DNA of 64,000 nucleotides from a virus. A program made the translations under genes and the position numbers. Of the stretch, positions 179-57,317 are shown piece by piece. Location: positions 1 through 64,000 of IMG/VR virus record IMGVR_UViG_3300031251_000967. The stretch is one strand, 5' to 3'. The notes beneath the pieces were generated by a model. It was not told the DNA's origin. It saw only the letters and a program-made list of their open reading frames with translations, and did not search any database. Numbering within the stretch: the stretch's first letter is position 1; each line of letters opens with the position of its first letter.

Positions 179-252
<74 letters not shown>

Positions 253-311: not shown

Positions 312-397
312 TGGTGGAGGGGGTAGGATTCGAACCTACGTAGACTTCCGTCGGCAGATTTACAGTCTGCTGCCATTGACCGCTCGGCCACCCCTCC
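312..397 (-). tRNA. tRNA-Tyr(GTA)
   Basis: GGAGGGG...GCAGA-CTGTAAA-TCTGC, long variable arm, GGTTCGAATCC, CCA end. Confidence 0.97.
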
Positions 398-2097: not shown

Positions 2098-2172
2098 GCC
2101 GGGTTAGCACAGTGGTAGTGCAGCGGTTTTGTAAACCGAAGGTCGGGGGTTCGAATCCCTCACCCGGCACCA
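2098..2172 (+). tRNA. tRNA-Thr(TGT); probable prophage attachment locus
   Basis: GCCGGGT...CGGT-TTTGTAA-ACCG...GGTTCGAATCC...CACCA; phage genes start immediately downstream. Confidence 0.96.
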
Positions 2173-5800: not shown

Positions 5801-6048
5801 TGCCCTCTGATCTCCCCGCAGCGCCGGGGGAGCCGCACATCGACCCGTTCGTGAATTCGGTGTGGTGCCTGATTTTCTCGATGATCGAGCGCGGCGTCGA
5901 CGGGTCTGAACCGTGGTGGGGTCAGGACTTCCTCATGGTGAAGCGCGCCCTTGAGGAACTGGGGCTCAACTGTGATCCGAACGCCGTGACGCTCGATGTT
6001 GATGCCCCTCCCGATCTTCGCCGCACCGGCGAGAGCGACACACAGTGA
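5797..6048 (+). CDS. Hypothetical phage protein
   Basis: ATGA coupling. Confidence 0.55.
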   Translation: MMPSDLPAAPGEPHIDPFVNSVWCLIFSMIERGVDGSEPWWGQDFLMVKRALEELGLNCDPNAVTLDVDAPPDLRRTGESDTQ

Positions 6049-6350: not shown

Positions 6351-6623
6351 ATGCCCCGGTGGAACGACATTCCGCCCTGGCCCGGCTACACCCTCGCCTC
6401 GTTAGCGGCCGTACATCACGATATCGCAGTACGGTGTGGTGCCTGCGGGAAGCATGGGAAGCCGATCCGGCCGGACGATCTCATTCCCCGCTTCGGTCCC
6501 GACTTCTGGTTGCGGGATCTCGTCAAGTATCTTGTGTGCGCAGGGTGCGGGGAACGATCGGCGGAGATCCAGATCGCGGTACGGCACGAGATGACGTACT
6601 CACGGCTGTTGAGGGACGATTAG
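6351..6623 (+). CDS. Zinc-ribbon protein
   Basis: CGACGKH...LVCAGCGER. Confidence 0.7.
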   Translation: MPRWNDIPPWPGYTLASLAAVHHDIAVRCGACGKHGKPIRPDDLIPRFGPDFWLRDLVKYLVCAGCGERSAEIQIAVRHEMTYSRLLRDD

Positions 6624-6684
6624 CTGTTGCTTTGCTCGGCAGGATGGGGCAGTAGCGGAAGAAACCCGAAGCAGAGTCACTGCC

Positions 6685-6870
6685 ATGACTGAAGTTGTTT
6701 CATGCGTCTTGGCTATCTTGGTCCACCCGGCAGGCCCGATTGTTTTCACTTTCGGGCTGGTCGCGGCAGCATGCGCTTTGACGGTGATCCGCGTTGTGCT
6801 CCCGTGGAACCGGCTTACCGATCGAGAGCGCGAAGAGGTGATCCGCCGTCTCGGCGGACATCGTAAATAA
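6685..6870 (+). CDS. Small membrane protein
   Basis: Hydrophobic N-terminal half, basic tail. Confidence 0.5.
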   Translation: MTEVVSCVLAILVHPAGPIVFTFGLVAAACALTVIRVVLPWNRLTDREREEVIRRLGGHRK

Positions 6871-6938
6871 GGCGGGCGAGGCCCAGTACGTCACCCCCGA
6901 TCCGGCGAAAGCCCTGTCCGATATCCTGAGGTAAACTG

Positions 6939-7301
6939 ATGAGCACGTTGCAAGTTGGGCAGACGCTGTGGTTCGTGCCGTTCCGGAGCTACAACGGACA
7001 GCCGCGGGAACTTCCCGTGACGAAGATCGGCCGGAAGTGGGGAGAGTTGGAAAATGGCCGATATCGGTTCGATCTTCAGACGCTTCAGGTGGACTGCAAC
7101 GGGCACTCGCGCCCCGGCGTCCTGTACACTGACCGTGCAATATGGGAAGCGAAAGAGGCCGCCGACGGCGCGTGGCGATCGTTCACGACGCAGTTCGTTC
7201 GGTTGCGCCACCGCCCGCCACACCTGACCGCCGATCGCATCCGGGAAGCAGCCTCATTGCTGGGGTTCGATATCCACCTGAGGGACGGAGAGAAACAGTG
7301 A
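6939..7301 (+). CDS. Small beta-barrel phage protein
   Basis: LQVGQTLWFV...VTKIGRKW SH3-like pattern; GAGG RBS. Confidence 0.7.
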   Translation: MSTLQVGQTLWFVPFRSYNGQPRELPVTKIGRKWGELENGRYRFDLQTLQVDCNGHSRPGVLYTDRAIWEAKEAADGAWRSFTTQFVRLRHRPPHLTADRIREAASLLGFDIHLRDGEKQ

Positions 7302-7636
7302 GCGACGCAACGGGGCCGATCACGCGCGAGGAGATGGTCGAGCTATTCGGCGCGGAGATGCCGATAGAGGCCGTCAACGCCGTGTGGAACGCTCCGCCGG
7401 ATTGGACGACCGGCGACGTCCGGGCCGAGTTGCGCCGTCTTGCCGAGCAAAAGAAAGCGGCAGTGCCAGAACGTAGCCCGGCCGGCATGGTCTGGATGGA
7501 CCTCTGCCGCAAATTCGCCGACGCTGCCGGGAAGGACGATCAGGAGCGAATGGACTTCCTTATGGCGACCATGAAAGCGCTGGAGGAAGAATACCCTGAG
7601 CAGATCGCGGCCGAGAAGGCTCTTTGGGGCGGCTGA
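7298..7636 (+). CDS. Hypothetical phage protein
   Basis: GGAG RBS, GTGA overlap. Confidence 0.6.
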   Translation: MSDATGPITREEMVELFGAEMPIEAVNAVWNAPPDWTTGDVRAELRRLAEQKKAAVPERSPAGMVWMDLCRKFADAAGKDDQERMDFLMATMKALEEEYPEQIAAEKALWGG

Positions 7637-50063: not shown

Positions 50064-50411
50064 TTATTCTTCGCGCACGTGCACGAGAGCACGAGCGTCG
50101 AAAGTCGCGGTCCATGTCGGCGAGCCCTTGCGGCGGGCGTCGAATTCGACCTTCGCCATAAGCGATGCGCGGCGACCCATGGGGGTGAAGGTGTGCTTCA
50201 CCGTGCCCACGCGGTGTCGCACCTTATCGCGGACGACGGCAACGTAGTCTTCGGGCTCCTTCACGCGCACCCGATCGCCGACCTTGATGGCTTCGTCTGT
50301 CATTGGCGTTCTCTTCTCAGCAGGGGCCCGGCACCAGCACGGGAGATTGTGGGGACCGGAGCGACCTTTGCCGCCGCAGGACCAGCAGGGAGAGGACTTG
50401 GCAGGATTCAT
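50064..50411 (-). CDS. Hypothetical protein, KOW/SH3-like
   Basis: IKVGDRVRV; ATGA overlap. Confidence 0.55.
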   Translation of the reverse strand: MNPAKSSPCWSCGGKGRSGPHNLPCWCRAPAEKRTPMTDEAIKVGDRVRVKEPEDYVAVVRDKVRHRVGTVKHTFTPMGRRASLMAKVEFDARRKGSPTWTATFDARALVHVREE

Positions 50412-50929
50412 TGTGGCGCCTGCCCTCCGGGCACCCGGCTCTCGTGCTCCGCGCTCAGCCCCGCCTGCGGCGTGTCTTCGCCCTTCGGGCTTCGATCCGA
50501 TGGCGCAAGGGCGTAACCCTCTGGCGGAGTCCAAGAGCCTTGGCCCCAGACGCCGCGCATGTCGGGAAATCGCGCGTAGACGGCATTCTCGGCAGACCGG
50601 CGGGCGGCTATCGCCGCGTCTACCGCTACGGTCTTTTCTTCTCGCAGCGGGCGCAGCACGGCCATAAGCCTTTCGTTTTCTCGCTCGCGCAGGCTCTGCA
50701 ACTCGCGAATCTGCCGGTCGATGTCTTCGATGGCGCGGCTCTTGGCGTCCCACGCTTCCTCACAAGCCTTCACGGCGTCATCGCGCGCCCGCTCAGCATC
50801 AACGACATCTGCCGCGCCCGTCGCCGCCTCCATAGCGGCGGTAAATTCCTTGCGCCTCTGATCGTAGAGCTTCTGCTTGGCCTTCTTGGCTTCGCGGCGC
50901 TGCGCCTTTTGTTCCTCTGTCAGCCGCAT
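50408..50929 (-). CDS. Coiled-coil protein
   Basis: AGGAG RBS; charged helices. Confidence 0.65.
   Translation of the reverse strand: MRLTEEQKAQRREAKKAKQKLYDQRRKEFTAAMEAATGAADVVDAERARDDAVKACEEAWDAKSRAIEDIDRQIRELQSLRERENERLMAVLRPLREEKTVAVDAAIAARRSAENAVYARFPDMRGVWGQGSWTPPEGYALAPSDRSPKGEDTPQAGLSAEHESRVPGGQAPQ
50416..50506 (-). repeat. Multibranch structured motif, copy 2
   Basis: Aligns with 52378-52459 with compensatory changes. Confidence 0.7.
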
Positions 50930-51041
50930 GTGCGTGTCTCCTGCGATATGCGATCGTTACCGAAGGCCGAGACCGCTTGCGGGCTCGGGGAGCGCCGAAG
51001 GCGCGAGTAGAGCGCGGTGCGCGGTAGCGCAATCGCCATAA

Positions 51042-51326
51042 TCAACCATCAGTTGTCTCTCCTCGTGCGGGTGCAGGCGCGGGACAGGCGGGAGGATCGA
51101 TACGGACGATTTTGAGCCCAGCCGATTTGAGGTAATCCATCAATGCGGCGGTTAGCTGTTTCGGCATTCGGCCGTTCTGCCGGAGGTCGGCGCAGATGCC
51201 CTCAAGGTACTGATCAATGACCGTGTCCACGATCCGTGGCATGGCAGCGTCGAGCCCCGTCTTGACGCCGCTCGCGACGCCTTCGCCGATAGCGCTGTCC
51301 ATGTCCTTGCGAAACAGTCCGAACAT
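51042..51326 (-). CDS. Hypothetical protein
   Basis: 94-aa ORF with purine-rich RBS. Confidence 0.6.
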   Translation of the reverse strand: MFGLFRKDMDSAIGEGVASGVKTGLDAAMPRIVDTVIDQYLEGICADLRQNGRMPKQLTAALMDYLKSAGLKIVRIDPPACPAPAPARGETTDG

Positions 51327-51733
51327 TGTTGCTCTACCCCCCTCTCCCCTGACGCGCTGCGGAACCCGTTCGGAGTACTGTTTGACGCTTTTCGGAGGAG
51401 CGGCCAGTGGTCGCGGAAAAGCGCTTTCAGCCCTTCCGGTGCCGGCGGTGGGTTGTCGATGATTTCCATGAAGCGGTCGAAAGCGTCTGGCGAGGCGCAG
51501 AACGTCGTTTGATCCTCGGAACCATCTCGCGCCCGTTCCGAACCCTTCCCTGCATCACAGCCCCGTGAAACAGGCGTTTCACGCGATCCTGGCGGCAGGA
51601 GGTCAGCCGGCAGTGCAACTCCGAGCGCGAGAAGCCCGTTCAGCACGACGTCCACTCGTTCCAGCGATCCATGGATGGCCGGGAACCCGTCGTGGTCGGC
51701 CAGTTGCTTGGCGAGGTGATGGCGGCGGGTCAT
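51152..51733 (-). CDS. Hypothetical protein with DUF1778/TacA-like C-terminal peptide
   Basis: SPDAFDRFMEIIDNPPPAPEGLKALF. Confidence 0.5.
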   Translation of the reverse strand: MTRRHHLAKQLADHDGFPAIHGSLERVDVVLNGLLALGVALPADLLPPGSRETPVSRGCDAGKGSERARDGSEDQTTFCASPDAFDRFMEIIDNPPPAPEGLKALFRDHWPLLRKASNSTPNGFRSASGERGVEQQCSDCFARTWTALSAKASRAASRRGSTLPCHGSWTRSLISTLRASAPTSGRTAECRNS

Positions 51734-52131
51734 GAGGGAGCACGCCCAGCGAATTCGATGCGGATGACCCACGGCGGAGAGCGCGTCTCGTCGCGCTCAA
51801 TCGCGACCGACTTAACCTTGCGGCCGTTCCACTTCCTGCCGGGCCTCGCGATCGGCCGGACCCGATACCAGCAATCGGGTTCCTCCCCTTCGACGTAGTC
51901 GTCGGGATGCTCCCACTGCACGCGAAGGTGAAGATCGAAAGGGGCTTCTTTGCCGAACAGGTATTCCAGCACCGAGGCGCGGTCGCGGACCTCCTCCTTG
52001 CCGTTCCAGCGCAATCCGGTCCACGCCGGGCTGTCCGGCGTCACGCGATAGCCGAGCACCGTGCATGTCGTCGGATCGACGGGGAACAATTCGCGATAGG
52101 GATCGCGTTGGATGCGCGGGTCAATGGTCAT
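51730..52131 (-). CDS. Hypothetical protein
   Basis: ATGA-coupled; ends PWVIRIEF. Confidence 0.6.
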   Translation of the reverse strand: MTIDPRIQRDPYRELFPVDPTTCTVLGYRVTPDSPAWTGLRWNGKEEVRDRASVLEYLFGKEAPFDLHLRVQWEHPDDYVEGEEPDCWYRVRPIARPGRKWNGRKVKSVAIERDETRSPPWVIRIEFAGRAPS

Positions 52132-52346
52132 GAGGGGACATCCGAGATGAGGCGATAGTGCTTGCTGCGGAACAAATGCGTTCCGAGCGGCAGGCGCGCT
52201 CCGATCAGCCGCGGCACTGGATGCATGAGCACGTCGCACATCGCGACACCTGGGCGAAGGTCCGCGATCCTGTAACGAGAGACGGCGTTGCGCCGCCGAT
52301 CGTCCATCTCCCACACCTGCCCCACCCGTACCTCTGGGGCGATCAC
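52128..52346 (-). CDS. Small SH3-like protein
   Basis: VRVGQVWEMDDRR. Confidence 0.6.
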   Translation of the reverse strand: MIAPEVRVGQVWEMDDRRRNAVSRYRIADLRPGVAMCDVLMHPVPRLIGARLPLGTHLFRSKHYRLISDVPS

Positions 52347-52795
52347 GAGGCACCGCCGACGACAGAGGAAGGGTTTAGCGCATCGGCGTTGCCGACCGGG
52401 CTCTCGTCTCCGACCGAGCCCCTATGGGTCTCGGCCCTCCGGGCTTCGATCCCTTGCGCGTCCAGCGCTTCCAGCCCGTTCGCGAACACGTAGCAGAGCA
52501 CCGCGAATGATCCGGTGGCGTCGTTCGGCGGCTGCTGAAAGATGCTCATGACGCCGTCGGCGTAGCAGCGTTCCAGCGCCATCATGTCCGGAGCTTCCGG
52601 GTCGGTTATCAGGCGCAAGATCGCCATCGCCCGCGCGGCGGCGTCGTTGACGTGGCCGTTGAACACCGCCATGTGCACGTCGGGGAACGCGATAGGGATC
52701 GCAGCCGAATGGCCAAGACCCGAAGGGGCTTGGTGCGGAGCACAAGAGCCCGGGCCGAAGGCATCGCCGTTATCTAAGTTGTTGGTTTCGTTCAC
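52343..52795 (-). CDS. Hypothetical protein
   Basis: GAGG RBS before GTG. Confidence 0.5.
   Translation of the reverse strand: MNETNNLDNGDAFGPGSCAPHQAPSGLGHSAAIPIAFPDVHMAVFNGHVNDAAARAMAILRLITDPEAPDMMALERCYADGVMSIFQQPPNDATGSFAVLCYVFANGLEALDAQGIEARRAETHRGSVGDESPVGNADALNPSSVVGGAS
52378..52459 (-). repeat. Multibranch structured motif, copy 1
   Basis: GGATCGAAGCCCGGAGGGC...GGGGCT...ACGAGAGCC shared with 50416-50506. Confidence 0.7.
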
Positions 52796-52826
52796 TGTCC
52801 TCGTCTCCCCTGTTTCCTCAGGCCGA

Positions 52827-53339
52827 TCACTCTGCCGCCATCTTCCGGTCGTACTTGTCGCCGTCGATGCGCTCGGCAGCGGGAGGCGCCCATCCTCGCG
52901 GCGAGAGGGCCTTCGCCTTTTCGGCCATCTCCCCGACGGCGGCATGGAACCGGCTGACGAGAATCTTGCGCTCGCGCTCGGCGATGGCCCGCTCCGCGTC
53001 GGTCAAGTCATTGGCCCGGATCTGCCGCCAGTTCGGGCGCACCATGTCGCGCGGCGCCCACGGCGGCTGCACGTACTGCTCACGCTTCGGCCGGCCGTGC
53101 ATGGCGAAAATGACGCGCTCGGCCTCGCGGTCGTAATCCGCGTCGAGCCATTCCTGCATCGGGTCGGCGGGGCTCGGAAGCTGAAGCCCCATGCTCCGCC
53201 GCCATGCGCGATCGTAAGCGTGCCAGCGCCACGTCTGCGGGGTGTCAAGCCTCTGACCTGATCCACGTTTTTGGCGGAGGTGCAGAAGGTCGTTCGCGCT
53301 GAACGGGGAGTGATAGGATGTCGGCGGGTTGTCTTGCAT
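52827..53339 (-). CDS. Hypothetical protein downstream of replication initiator
   Basis: 170-aa ORF; start uncertain. Confidence 0.5.
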   Translation of the reverse strand: MQDNPPTSYHSPFSANDLLHLRQKRGSGQRLDTPQTWRWHAYDRAWRRSMGLQLPSPADPMQEWLDADYDREAERVIFAMHGRPKREQYVQPPWAPRDMVRPNWRQIRANDLTDAERAIAERERKILVSRFHAAVGEMAEKAKALSPRGWAPPAAERIDGDKYDRKMAAE

Positions 53340-54024
53340 TTGGTTCGCCTCGGGCGTTCAGAGCCCAATTAATCCAGGTACGATGCCAATCGGCTTTTCG
53401 GCCCTTCGCCGCGGACTGCGAGAGCCAGTGGTTCGTGAACTTGATGACCTCAGCCTCCAAGTTCGCCCTCGGCAGCGAGACTTTCTCCCGCGCCTTGCGG
53501 GCGTCCTCGATCCACTCCTCTGGCATGACGAAATCCGAAGGCAATCGAGAACCGCGTTCTTCGCTCCCCCGCTTGCGGGGGGGCTTAAGGGGGGATTCTT
53601 CTTCTTGGTTATGGGGATGGGGATGGGTAGGTTCTTTCTGGGTTGCCTGGAAAGAACCTACCGGGTTTTCTGTTTCGTTTGTTTTCTGAGACTTAGGCCG
53701 CCCACCTTGTGCGCCGTTCGCGCGGCTGTTCGCTGCGCGTTCTTCGACAAATTTCCACTCTTTTTCGAGCCTTTCGTTCCGCCATGTGCCGGCGGACAGG
53801 TCGAAGAACTCGGCAATCACCGGTCGCAGCTTGTCGGTCCAGCGCGCCACGGTGACGCCGAGCATGCGGGCAATGCGCTTGTCATCGTCCGGAAGCGCTT
53901 GCCCGGCGTTCCGCCACGTGATCATCAGCAGCTTGAGGTACGCGCCATGCTCCTCAAGCGACAAATGCATGGTGTCGCCGAGATAGTCGCCGCAGAATAG
54001 GGGCATGGCAGGGGCTTGGCTCAC
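53245..54024 (-). CDS. Replication initiator-like protein (DUF1376/YdaU N-terminus)
   Basis: MPLFCGDYLGDTMHLSLEEHGAYLKLL; C-terminal KFTNHW...DWHRTWINW. Confidence 0.88.
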   Translation of the reverse strand: MSQAPAMPLFCGDYLGDTMHLSLEEHGAYLKLLMITWRNAGQALPDDDKRIARMLGVTVARWTDKLRPVIAEFFDLSAGTWRNERLEKEWKFVEERAANSRANGAQGGRPKSQKTNETENPVGSFQATQKEPTHPHPHNQEEESPLKPPRKRGSEERGSRLPSDFVMPEEWIEDARKAREKVSLPRANLEAEVIKFTNHWLSQSAAKGRKADWHRTWINWALNARGEPNARQPADILSLPVQRERPSAPPPKTWIRSEA

Positions 54025-55185: not shown

Positions 55186-56844
55186 TCAGAGCAAAGCCTC
55201 TTGCTGATCGCTGGAGAGCGATTGGAACAGGGGGGAGTCGAGACCTTGCATGCGGTCGAGACGGCGCTTGATATCGGCTACGTACTCGGCTTCCCGCTCG
55301 ATCAGGATCGCGTCGAAACCTTCCCGCATGCAGGCCGCGCCCGTGGTACCGGAGCCGGCGAAGGGATCAAGCACGGTGCCACCCGGCGGGGTGACGAGGC
55401 GCACGAGCCAGCGCATGAGCGCGATCGGCTTTACGGTCGGGTGCTTGCTGTCGCAGCGATCGTCGGCGTCGGCCTTGGCGGAGAAGAAGAAACGGGCGGC
55501 AGAGCCTGTTTCACTCTCAATGGCACCGATGGGCGATCCGGCCGCCGTACTGCCATAACCCGGCGCGCGCACCGTGCCGCCGCGGGTCCCGTGCGTCTGT
55601 CGCTCTCCGAACTGCGCGAAGGCTTCCAGCACCTCGTCAGAGCCGTCGTGGACGAGGTTAGCGGGCCAGCGGCCGAGCGCTTCGCCCGGTCGCTGCTCGG
55701 CAAAGCGTTCGGGAGTCGTGCGATCGGTAATCGTGTGACCGTATTCACCGGGCGTGCCCGAAGGCGCGTAGCCGCGGCGTGCGACGCTCGGGTTCTCGCC
55801 CGCCACCCGGCACGCATCGACGTTCAACGCCCCGGTGCCGTGCAACAGCACGTTCGCAGCAACGGTGCCGTCGAGAGGCTTACGGGCAAGGACGATCGGC
55901 TCCCAGGCGGGCTTTAGGGCGGTTCCTATTCCGTCAGGAACAATCGGTTTGCCGCACCTTCCGCAATCCGGCCATGCTCCGCCATCTTGTGGCTCCGGTT
56001 GTCCGGCCACAGTTCCAGATTGCTCGGATCGTTGTTCAGCGGCTTGTGATCCCCGTGGTGAACCACTTCCACCCGCAGCAACGGACGGCCGATCCGCTTC
56101 GCCATTACTAACCGATGTTCCATCACATAGCCGTCCGCACGCGCCATGCTGATGAACTCCGGCGGGCATCTGACATACCGAACCGAGACATAGTTTCCGT
56201 GTCTCTTCCGGTAGGTTACGCCGCCCTTCCAAGCCCAGTTGGCAGCACCCTTCGGCGGGGGCGGCGCATTGCAGTGCTTCAGCGGATGCGCCTTGTTCCG
56301 GCAGGCACGGGAACAATACCTGCCGCTGCCCGCTCGCAACTGATGAGGCCGCCGATACATCGGCGTCGTGCACAACACGCAAGTTGTATTCGGGCGACGG
56401 TTCGGGGTGCTCACAGTCGCAGATTTTACCATCTAACGCCTTGTTTATGCTATGACTTTTCGGAAATCCGGCACCATAGCACCAAGCCAATTGGTCACGG
56501 ATCTCGAAACCGGCATCCTCGATAGCGCAGGCGAGCCGGTGATAGGTGCGCGTGCCGCTGAAGGCGATCAGATGCGCGCCCGGCTTCAAGACGCGGTAGA
56601 CTTCACGCCACCAGTCAGGATCGAACGCGGTCTCCCCAGTGTCCCATTGCTGGCCCATGAATCCAGCCGATGCCCGCTTGTAGAGGCCGTCCCGGTCCTT
56701 GGCTGGCGCGCTGCCGGGCTTGCCGAAACGCTTCTGGATGCTGACGAGCGAGTACGGCGGATCTGTCACGCATGCGTCTATGCTGCCGTCTGCGAAAGTG
56801 CGCGCGACGTCGCGGCAATCGCCGTGCTCGACGCGAATGTTCAT
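55186..56844 (-). CDS. DNA amino-methyltransferase (N6/N4) with large internal insertion
   Basis: TDPPY, GFPKS, GTALKPAWEPI, HPTVKP, LDPFAGSGTT. Confidence 0.92.
   Translation of the reverse strand: MNIRVEHGDCRDVARTFADGSIDACVTDPPYSLVSIQKRFGKPGSAPAKDRDGLYKRASAGFMGQQWDTGETAFDPDWWREVYRVLKPGAHLIAFSGTRTYHRLACAIEDAGFEIRDQLAWCYGAGFPKSHSINKALDGKICDCEHPEPSPEYNLRVVHDADVSAASSVASGQRQVLFPCLPEQGASAEALQCAAPAEGCCQLGLEGRRNLPEETRKLCLGSVCQMPAGVHQHGACGRLCDGTSVSNGEADRPSVAAGGSGSPRGSQAAEQRSEQSGTVAGQPEPQDGGAWPDCGRCGKPIVPDGIGTALKPAWEPIVLARKPLDGTVAANVLLHGTGALNVDACRVAGENPSVARRGYAPSGTPGEYGHTITDRTTPERFAEQRPGEALGRWPANLVHDGSDEVLEAFAQFGERQTHGTRGGTVRAPGYGSTAAGSPIGAIESETGSAARFFFSAKADADDRCDSKHPTVKPIALMRWLVRLVTPPGGTVLDPFAGSGTTGAACMREGFDAILIEREAEYVADIKRRLDRMQGLDSPLFQSLSSDQQEALL
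55926..56432 (-). CDS. HNH endonuclease nested in +1 frame inside the methyltransferase
   Basis: CVLC...YCSRAC, NWAWKGG, YVMEHRLVMA...EVVHHGDHKPLNNDPSNLEL. Confidence 0.88.
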   Translation of the reverse strand: MVKSATVSTPNRRPNTTCVLCTTPMYRRPHQLRAGSGRYCSRACRNKAHPLKHCNAPPPPKGAANWAWKGGVTYRKRHGNYVSVRYVRCPPEFISMARADGYVMEHRLVMAKRIGRPLLRVEVVHHGDHKPLNNDPSNLELWPDNRSHKMAEHGRIAEGAANRLFLTE

Positions 56845-57317
56845 GTGAGCACCTGCGGCCCTGACATACGGATCTCAAATCCGTAAATTGCTTCGACGAC
56901 GGCGCGACGGAGACGAGACACTGAGTCGTCTATCCCCTTGTGCTCCTCGACCACGAACCGGCCGTTCTTTTCGCGGTAGGTGAAGTCGGCGGTGTAGACG
57001 GCCGTGCGACCGTTCGGATACCGCTCGGAGCGGATGACGACTTGGCGTTCGCCGATCTTCAGGACGAACCGGACTTGGCGGCTGAGGTGGGTGATCTGCC
57101 CTGCCCGCTCCATCAGCTTCAGTTCGCACCAGCGGTCGTACTCGGACTGGCTGTCGAAGCGCACGCCGTCCACGATGACGGGCTTGGCCTTCCACTTCGA
57201 GGGCAAGGGATCGCGCGCCGGCTTCTGTTGCGCGATCTGCTCCGCAAGCAGTTTGGCTGCTACCTGTTCGCGCGCGGCCGGGCCGAGGGAGAGGATGGAG
57301 AATGTGCGCTTCGACAC
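56841..57317 (-). CDS. DUF1064 PD-(D/E)xK nuclease-like protein
   Basis: SKWKAKPVIVDGVRFDSQSE...YTADFTY...VVEEHKG. Confidence 0.85.
   Translation of the reverse strand: MSKRTFSILSLGPAAREQVAAKLLAEQIAQQKPARDPLPSKWKAKPVIVDGVRFDSQSEYDRWCELKLMERAGQITHLSRQVRFVLKIGERQVVIRSERYPNGRTAVYTADFTYREKNGRFVVEEHKGIDDSVSRLRRAVVEAIYGFEIRMSGPQVLT

Follow-up and report, generated by a model that had tools for sequence, protein, structure and literature searches.

The question raised by a 64,000-nucleotide (nt) stretch of viral DNA (positions 1 to 64,000 of IMG/VR record IMGVR_UViG_3300031251_000967, a 75.5-kilobase (kb) provirus; the whole stretch is hereafter called the window) is what connects two look-alike stretches of its minus strand, at 52459-52378 and 50506-50416, which share short blocks of sequence and overlie the 3' ends of two small genes. 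A preliminary description, drawn up from the letters alone, had considered them to be a single covarying multibranch nucleic-acid element; both copies were found where it had placed them, with the blocks it had listed, and this central view of them has held up. The element family to which both belong is designated here as E. It is a large, apparently uncatalogued family of cis elements in mobile DNA. The interpretation that we favor, tentatively, is that E is a widespread, strand-specific folded cis signal that works as single-stranded DNA, most likely controlling the synthesis of the complementary DNA strand. Among sequencing runs, the stretch occurs in rhizosphere DNA metagenomes only, and no RNA run is listed as containing it.

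A covarying fold conserved at the nucleic-acid level

The window contains the 19-nt core of E, GGATCGAAGCCCGRAGGGC, exactly two times where 0.06 occurrences would be expected, and the core is present without mismatch in copy B (Table 1); a third exact core lies beyond the window, at 73597-73614 on the plus strand, also at the 3' end of an open reading frame (ORF). Copies A and C are identical at 26 of 26 nucleotides across nine codons, with zero synonymous changes, and the intervening hairpins differ yet still pair. These two copies share a reading frame and so encode the same peptide, AQGIEARRAET..GSV.DESP. Copy B reads the first conserved block in another frame (SDRSPKGED versus QGIEARRAE in A) and the second block, ACGAGAGCC, in the same frame as A (HESR and DESP, respectively); the earlier statement that the copies are translated in different frames is accordingly true of the first block and not of the second. 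The conclusion drawn from it, that conservation resides at the nucleic-acid level, is sound, because copy B reads the first block in another frame, copies A and C show no synonymous change, and hairpin lengths among relatives differ by non-multiples of three.

Searching for further homologs and for covariation, as the preliminary description had proposed, was productive. A covariance model (R1; 85 positions, 26 pairs) built from 13 copies recovered 115 copies in the window and 49 viral loci. Across the 111 distinct copies, the cells of the paired positions were paired in 95.5% of cases, compared with 71.6% after column shuffling and 32-41% with slid partners, the first percentage being inflated because the alignment used for counting was fitted to the model. 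Changes on both sides were seen in 23 of the 26 pairs, with 560 double-change cells versus 145, and a hand alignment predating any model already displayed the same compensatory changes. Single-sequence folding energy was weakly better than that of shuffled sequences (z scores for two copies of -2.65 and -0.65 as RNA, and -3.0 and -0.4 as DNA); the proof of structure therefore lies in the comparison between copies, not in energy.

E spans approximately 80-100 nt. It is closed by P1, a stem of five base pairs followed by CC, whose pattern GCGNN/N'N'CGC is found in nearly all copies. After a linker of one or two bases comes P2 (nGGATC/GAGCCn'), which holds a conserved internal A.G opposition and which neighboring G.A and A.G oppositions could lengthen. 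P2 leads to a four-way junction formed with P3 (GCCC-GNA-GGGC), P4 (CCGAG-A-C..G-G-CTCGG), and the small hairpin P4b, and an optional side hairpin, P5, stands between P2 and P1. The three covarying stems recognized at the outset are genuine helices of the family, the closing stem being P1, the "last hairpin" P5, and the "middle hairpin" the tip of P4. A T-loop-like reading, GGG-ATCGAAG-CCC, was dropped, as it conflicts with the covarying GCCC/GGGC hairpin.

The exact 19-mer core has 48 matches in IMG/VR viral stretches and at least 120 in species genomes (Alphaproteobacteria, Fibrobacter, Pseudomonas, Acidobacteriota, and other phyla). In Rfam 15, only tRNAs reached the gathering threshold in the window, and nothing matched the element over 50200-52700 at expectation values up to 10; scans of the Fibrobacter, Pseudomonas, and viral loci likewise gave no match on the element, in agreement with the novelty that had been made conditional on this outcome. 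ARAGORN detected no tRNA or tmRNA in 12 element-bearing loci. String searches of the literature with the core motif returned chance matches only, and the recent open papers on plasmid leading regions that were consulted make no mention of such an element, the older literature lying outside this check.

E on the transferred strand of conjugative plasmids

With a viral copy as the query, 516 plasmid records were matched; with a plasmid copy, the number rose to 4032 records and 8130 places (3073 conjugative; 2409 from E. coli and 1091 from Klebsiella). An E copy from an Enterobacterales chromosome gave no match when queried against E. coli chromosomes and plasmids. The placement of E in the plasmids follows a strand rule. 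An IncF plasmid of Winslowiella has three copies in the interval from traM/oriT to ssb, each on the strand complementary to ssb, psiB, psiA, and other leading genes. Plasmid F has two copies (Table 1), again on that strand; each is found approximately 180 nt past Frpo2 or Frpo1, toward the DNA that reaches the recipient later. The same rule is obeyed in pKP1034 (two copies), a Massilia MOBF plasmid (two), an E. coli IncF plasmid (one), a Xanthomonas plasmid (one), and Bradyrhizobium pCW1_1 (one), whose copy is found approximately 380 nt upstream of an ArdC-like gene. In total, 12 of the 12 plasmid copies examined lie on the strand complementary to ssb, psiB, psiA, ArdA, or ArdC-like genes. According to PMC11541004 and its preprint, the transferred strand serves as the template for the genes of the leading region; since E is on the strand complementary to these genes, it lies on the transferred strand itself. 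The order E-Frpo2-ssb is colinear in at least 3870 records of F-like plasmids.

Three further observations concern these regions. One Salmonella "Frpo*" intergenic candidate happens to end within the 5' half of E. Homology among F-like plasmids often begins or stops exactly at the 5' (inner) end of E, as at positions 96-97 of query L176 (58175/58176 of F). In F, the transferred strand immediately 5' of E reads as a hairpin followed by CTGCAAGCC, which resembles CTGCAAAGCC at the G4 oric primer start, possibly by chance.

E on the packaged strand of Microviridae

A BLAST search against GenBank phages located E in Gokushovirus WZ-2015a, in the intergenic region between VP1 and VP2, and in Microviridae sp. 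SD_MC_78, between VP3 and VP4. The GenBank gokushoviruses (KT264808 and MH572438) carry E on the capsid-gene strand, which holds all genes and is the packaged (virion) strand; model R1 scored the two GenBank Microviridae copies at 63.8 and 46 bits. Two IMG/VR contigs with Phage_F capsid genes, L030 (circular, 4.5 kb) and L039, also have one copy each on the capsid-gene strand. Microviridae genomes carry a single E copy. To our knowledge, gokushoviruses have no defined complementary-strand origin.

Probable folded DNA rather than RNA

Structurally selected RNA tolerates G.U pairs far more than A.C oppositions. In the 2729 pair cells of E, Watson-Crick pairs account for 2572, G.U for 35, A.C for 43, and other combinations for 79. 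The loops, a second and independent line, point the same way: d(C-GNA-G) is the classic hyper-stable DNA mini-hairpin, and 211 C-GNA-G triloop hairpins occur on the element strand, against none of the complementary C-TNC-G form and approximately six expected from shuffles. GNRA-type tetraloops number 34 (approximately 10 expected from shuffles), and there is one of UNCG type. The orientation of E, moreover, tracks the strand that becomes single-stranded rather than the direction of transcription: all 12 plasmid copies examined are antisense to their flanking genes, those of Microviridae and Fibrobacter are sense, and the phage studied here has copies on both strands. From the pair types, the triloop bias, and the strand orientation, we infer that E acts as folded single-stranded DNA rather than as RNA. 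What we observe is a covarying strand-specific fold, pairing statistics of the DNA type, and, in two kinds of element that are unrelated to each other, a position on the strand that enters cells in single-stranded form.

Two RNA functions had been suggested at the outset. HK022 put is, like E, a cis-acting element of stem-loops present in two or more copies in the early region of a temperate phage; put acts as nascent sense RNA just downstream of early promoters, whereas E has no fixed orientation to transcription and pairs in the DNA manner. With an orientation that varies between contexts and no excess of G.U over A.C, E gives no support to a put-like antiterminator. An RNA processing site would need constant sense orientation and RNA-type pairing, and E displays neither.

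Relation to known single-strand signals

Closest in kind to E are signals by which plasmids and Microviridae initiate synthesis or transcription on a single strand. The Frpo/ssi/ssp single-stranded-DNA promoters are, like E, folded, situated on the transferred strand, located upstream (in the sense of transcription) of ssb, psiB, and anti-restriction operons, and present in several copies per leading region (Masai and Arai, 1997; PMC9849209; PMC11541004). Frpo is a long hairpin of approximately 330 nt that rebuilds -35 and -10 boxes, whereas E is multibranched and measures approximately 85 nt, and its GC-rich fold shows no TTGACA- or TATAAT-like boxes when read by eye. A further difference is that E extends to Microviridae, to tailed phages, and to islands in chromosomes. 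Besides the lack of visible boxes, the string GAAGCCCG is absent from five reference Frpo/ssi sequences, and the experimentally used Frpo2 fragment begins after E, leaving E approximately 180 nt outside; the identification of E as Frpo was rejected on these grounds.

The G4 oric "G site," the phiX174 n'-pas, and plasmid ssi are clusters of hairpins on the incoming strand that let host enzymes start the complementary strand. In G4, the signal lies in the intergenic stretch that follows the gene for the major capsid protein, and E has the same position in gokushovirus KT264808. Unlike the G4 oric hairpin cluster, E has a terminal stem that closes it and branches at three- and four-way junctions, and its role in priming is putative. 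As a G4-type primase origin, E was rejected: a model scan of the G4 genome had its best match at oric, at 6.6 bits and an expectation value of 2.2, and no conserved CTG follows E.

How E might act

On the interpretation that E is a single-stranded-DNA signal for complementary-strand synthesis, to which we assign somewhat less than an even chance, E would act while its strand is single-stranded, that is, at cell entry (the transferred plasmid strand or the Microviridae genome) or during the passage through replication. Two speculative options can be put forward. In the first, E would load the host priming machinery or primosome, as G4 oric or the phiX174 n'-pas does, and its branched fold could mimic a fork or junction. 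In the second, E would be a barrier that halts the polymerase and so delays duplex formation over the neighboring single-strand promoter and its operon. According to a 2026 preprint on the F plasmid, the incoming strand is "repeatedly primed" by host machinery, and prolonged single-strandedness has been shown for the F ssp2 promoter. A bolder version, which we regard as rather unlikely, takes E to be a near-universal and hitherto unrecognized single-stranded-DNA signal whose branched fold, with its three-way and four-way junctions, is read by a conserved host factor, for example as a fork or junction mimic that loads a PriA-type restart primosome or halts a polymerase; plasmids, gokushoviruses, integrative elements, and temperate phages would thereby time single- to double-strand conversion around early genes of the anti-defense type.

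Several points weigh against a single-stranded-DNA signal. The paired phage copies are explained least well, since a tailed double-stranded DNA phage need not pass through a single-stranded stage on entry, and any reason offered for these copies is as speculative as the choice between priming and barrier. The pairing in phages and the sense arrays of Fibrobacter (see below) fit a role in recombination or as a cassette boundary about as well, and the sense-strand placement after Fibrobacter genes is also what one would see with an attC-like site or an element at the 3' end of an mRNA. The F-plasmid copies, whose loops are GCCA, TTC, and ACCA, follow the C-GNA-G rule less closely, and the model-fitted alignment behind the paired percentage must be counted here as well. 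Finally, if E primes, its mode of recognition would be new, because E has neither homology to G4 oric nor visible -35/-10 boxes.

Paired copies and their cargo in the provirus

The covariance model detects six E copies in the provirus, four of them inside the window (Table 1). The preliminary count of two was thus correct as to the copies named and overlooked two diverged plus-strand copies in the window (A' and B'), as well as a third pair beyond it.

Table 1. Positions of E copies, cargo genes, and a neighboring gene; window positions unless a record is named
Feature	Record	Position	Strand	Description
Copy A		52373..52462	minus	P1 GCGCA/TGCGC; 81.6 bits, expectation value 3.5e-15 (model R1); covers final ~30 codons of cargo gene A
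Copy A'		52686..52772	plus	P1 GCGAT/ATCGC; 51.3 bits, expectation value 2e-8; inverted partner of A
Copy B		50411..50509	minus	P1 GCGCC/GGCGC; 38.9 bits, expectation value 1.1e-5; covers final ~30 codons of cargo gene B
Copy B'		50940..51041	plus	P1 GCGAT/ATCGC; 28.2 bits, expectation value 0.0028 over 466 kb; inverted partner of B
Pair C'/C, beyond window	G000	73201-73290; 73586-73677	minus; plus	model match in provirus
Plasmid F copies	NC_002483	58088-58175; 63476-63563	complementary to leading genes	69.4 and 58.9 bits
Cargo gene A		52343..52672	minus	109 amino acids, no known family; C-terminal tail QGIEARRAETHRGSVGDESPVGNAD encoded by copy A
Cargo gene B		50408..50929	minus	173 amino acids, coiled-coil-like, no known family
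Phage "primosomal protein" gene		53245..54024	minus	phrog_9327 at 4e-32, phrog_3992 at 1e-31; just upstream of cassettes

The six copies form three divergent inverted pairs with interiors of 223 nt (A'/A), 430 nt (B'/B), and 295 nt (C'/C), each enclosing one small gene without a known family. The partner upstream of the gene always has GCGAT in P1, lies on the template strand, and ends 10-20 nt ahead of the start codon. Its downstream counterpart is on the sense strand, where it encodes the last ~30 codons. For copy A', on the template strand of cargo gene A, the distance to the start codon is approximately 14 nt, and the 5' end of B' directly adjoins the GGAG ribosome-binding site of cargo gene B. 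Copy B' improves to an expectation value of 4.5e-4 when the provirus alone is searched, and P4 of copy B contains the tandem G.A variant CGAAG/CTGAG.

No Pfam or PHROG family was matched by a longer reading of the cargo A frame (52343-52945). Cargo B gave sub-threshold Pfam matches only and none in PHROG; taken together, cargo proteins B and C had no tblastn match in plasmids and no Pfam or PHROG family. The signal of GC content by codon position is too weak in the cassette region to assign the coding strands. The two window cassettes lie directly downstream of a replication module with genes for the "primosomal protein," a PAPS-reductase-like protein, a DNA methyltransferase, and a Holliday-junction resolvase, and the third pair, beyond the window, is near the integrase. 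The match of the methyltransferase (55186-56874, minus strand) to phrog_67 spans residues 11-545 but approximately 230 profile positions, which fits a large insertion. The left edge of the provirus has three tRNA genes (window 182-252 and 315-397, minus strand; 2098-2169, plus strand), which probably mark the integration site or host flank.

Across the viral loci, divergent neighbors tend to be close: 27 of 32 such pairs are separated by under 700 nt, compared with 44 to 5422 nt between convergent neighbors. The sequences of 21 divergent pairs (gaps up to 460 nt) were inspected, and each pair encloses an unrelated coding interior, in either gene orientation. One phage (L038, L043) has two cassettes whose flanking elements are 96% and 93% identical and whose cargoes, of 181 and 523 nt, are unrelated; here, similarity halts exactly at the 5' ends of the elements.

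Two side observations were made on viral contigs. In L010, from a phage of 46% GC, a GC-rich stretch of approximately 1 kb without long ORFs (6440-7430, minus strand) separates divergent operons, with E near its downstream end, and may hold more structured elements. Some small "viral" contigs with E (L007, 2591-3421, plus strand; L004, 1796-2506, plus strand) encode DUF932, a plasmid leading-region family, or an ERF single-strand annealing protein, and may be fragments of plasmids or integrative elements and not of phages.

Chromosomal islands

In Fibrobacter, E is lengthened by insertions to approximately 140 nt, and one same-strand copy follows each gene of defense-type islands; the genes preceding it include AAA_21 with RloB, a YhcG nuclease, and DUF3800. 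On the opposite strand, after the reverse complement of E, loci L074 (~800-855 and 5995-6040), L121, and L100 hold a conserved GGAG and a mini-ORF of nine codons (M-x-x-x-K/R-W-L/Q-E-A/V-stop) ending in GGCCTAAC; it may encode a leader peptide or else represent another motif of the nucleic acid. The heptamer GTTAGGC, approximately 45 nt upstream of E in Fibrobacter, resembles an attC core but belongs to this conserved block, which reads oppositely as the mini-ORF (M...KWLEA and stop) behind GGAG. Inside the Fibrobacter arrays, a DUF3800-XI RNA (RF02975; 60 and 55 bits) adjoins the DUF3800 gene (L074, 6893-6939, minus strand; L121, 7021-7067, plus strand).

Pseudomonas copies lie antisense between accessory genes and have a conserved 5' extension, GCAAGCGGAGCGCGC. 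Gammaproteobacterial copies with GCAAGCGGAGCGCGC or GCAGCAAGC in this position were seen in L102 (2175-2200 and 7160-7180), L088, L107, L131, L174 (5970-5990), and L176 (6177-6200, reverse complement).

Alternative explanations

The most serious alternative, though we consider it unlikely, is that E is a recombination or cassette-boundary site akin to integron attC or Acinetobacter pdif, with folded or paired copies marking slots for the exchange of small accessory genes. The tight divergent pairs with their unrelated coding interiors, the two cassettes of one phage whose similarity ends exactly at the 5' ends of E, the Fibrobacter arrays with one copy per defense-type gene, and the F-like plasmid homology blocks that begin exactly at the inner end of E all speak for it, and strict Watson-Crick pairing would also suit a DNA recombination site. 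Integron attC shares much with E: its fold is kept more than its sequence, its pairing is strictly Watson-Crick, it sits at the 3' ends of small accessory-gene cassettes, it is active as one folded DNA strand, and it forms same-orientation arrays, as E does in Fibrobacter. In architecture the two part ways, attC being a single bulged hairpin with R''/R' core sites and E a branched element with no core sites and no adjacent intI; attC occurs as direct repeats, whereas E forms inverted pairs in phages. Indeed, E as an integron attC was rejected because its closing stem lacks the RYYYAAC/GTTRRRY core sites and contigs carrying two Fibrobacter arrays have no tyrosine recombinase match (PF00589). 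The provirus contains only its own prophage integrase (378-residue frame; 74986-75414) and no Y1 transposase (PF01797), and Microviridae hold one copy only. Where BLAST homology between phage loci breaks off, E is not overrepresented (8 of 224 block ends, compared with 2.7% of bases), and contigs of four metagenome runs yielded no form lacking or swapping a cassette, the one apparent joint being a cross-match to another E copy on the same contig. The module-shuffling site raised in the preliminary description thus survives as a faint echo, in the one phage whose two cassettes share flanking elements around unrelated cargo, and finds no counterpart in the homology-block ends.

Slightly less probable again is that E is a structured RNA (a 3'-end stabilizer, processing site, antiterminator, or small RNA) whose reverse-complement copies are incidental. 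For the phage studied here, as for Microviridae and Fibrobacter, the element strand is sense at or just after gene 3' ends; the helices covary as those of RNA families do, and tandem G.A and A.G oppositions are common RNA motifs too. Against this stand the absence of any preference for G.U over A.C, the rarity of UNCG- and GNRA-type loops beside the C-GNA-G triloops, and the antisense orientation of all 12 plasmid copies and of three of the six provirus copies to their adjacent genes. No U-tract follows E in the aligned copies, and Rfam yielded no match even at the most permissive expectation value.

An improbable reading is that E is a selfish palindromic repeat, similar to REP/BIME or the Rickettsia palindromic element, spreading through mobile DNA, tolerated at gene ends and within ORFs and without function for its carrier. 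It would account for the many copies per genome, on both strands and often read through by ORFs at both cassette ends, and for the placement at gene boundaries in very different elements. The same 19-mer and fold are, however, shared across phyla and found in Microviridae genomes of 4-5 kb, which can ill afford superfluous DNA; E keeps to one strand in the leading regions of plasmids; and copies within a genome have diverged while keeping their pairing, which argues for selection rather than recent copying. A REP/BIME with a RAYT was rejected specifically, as the 19-mer recurs in several phyla rather than being species-specific and PF01797 is absent from the provirus.

That the similarity merely reflects a C-terminal peptide shared by a protein family is extremely improbable and was rejected: copies A and C do encode the same peptide in the same frame, with a weak PHROG match there (expectation value 0.021), but the shifted first block of B, the hairpin insertions and deletions that are not multiples of three, the nine codons without synonymous change, and the many copies that are intergenic or antisense are incompatible with it.

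Significance

E is a concrete and easily deleted candidate for the step in which an incoming single strand is primed and converted to duplex. At present, E is either not annotated at all or is annotated as the tail of hypothetical proteins; it would offer a new way to mark leading regions, as well as the slots that accessory genes occupy in mobile DNA. Should E prove to be a recombination site or an RNA instead, it would still represent a large uncatalogued family spread across several phyla.

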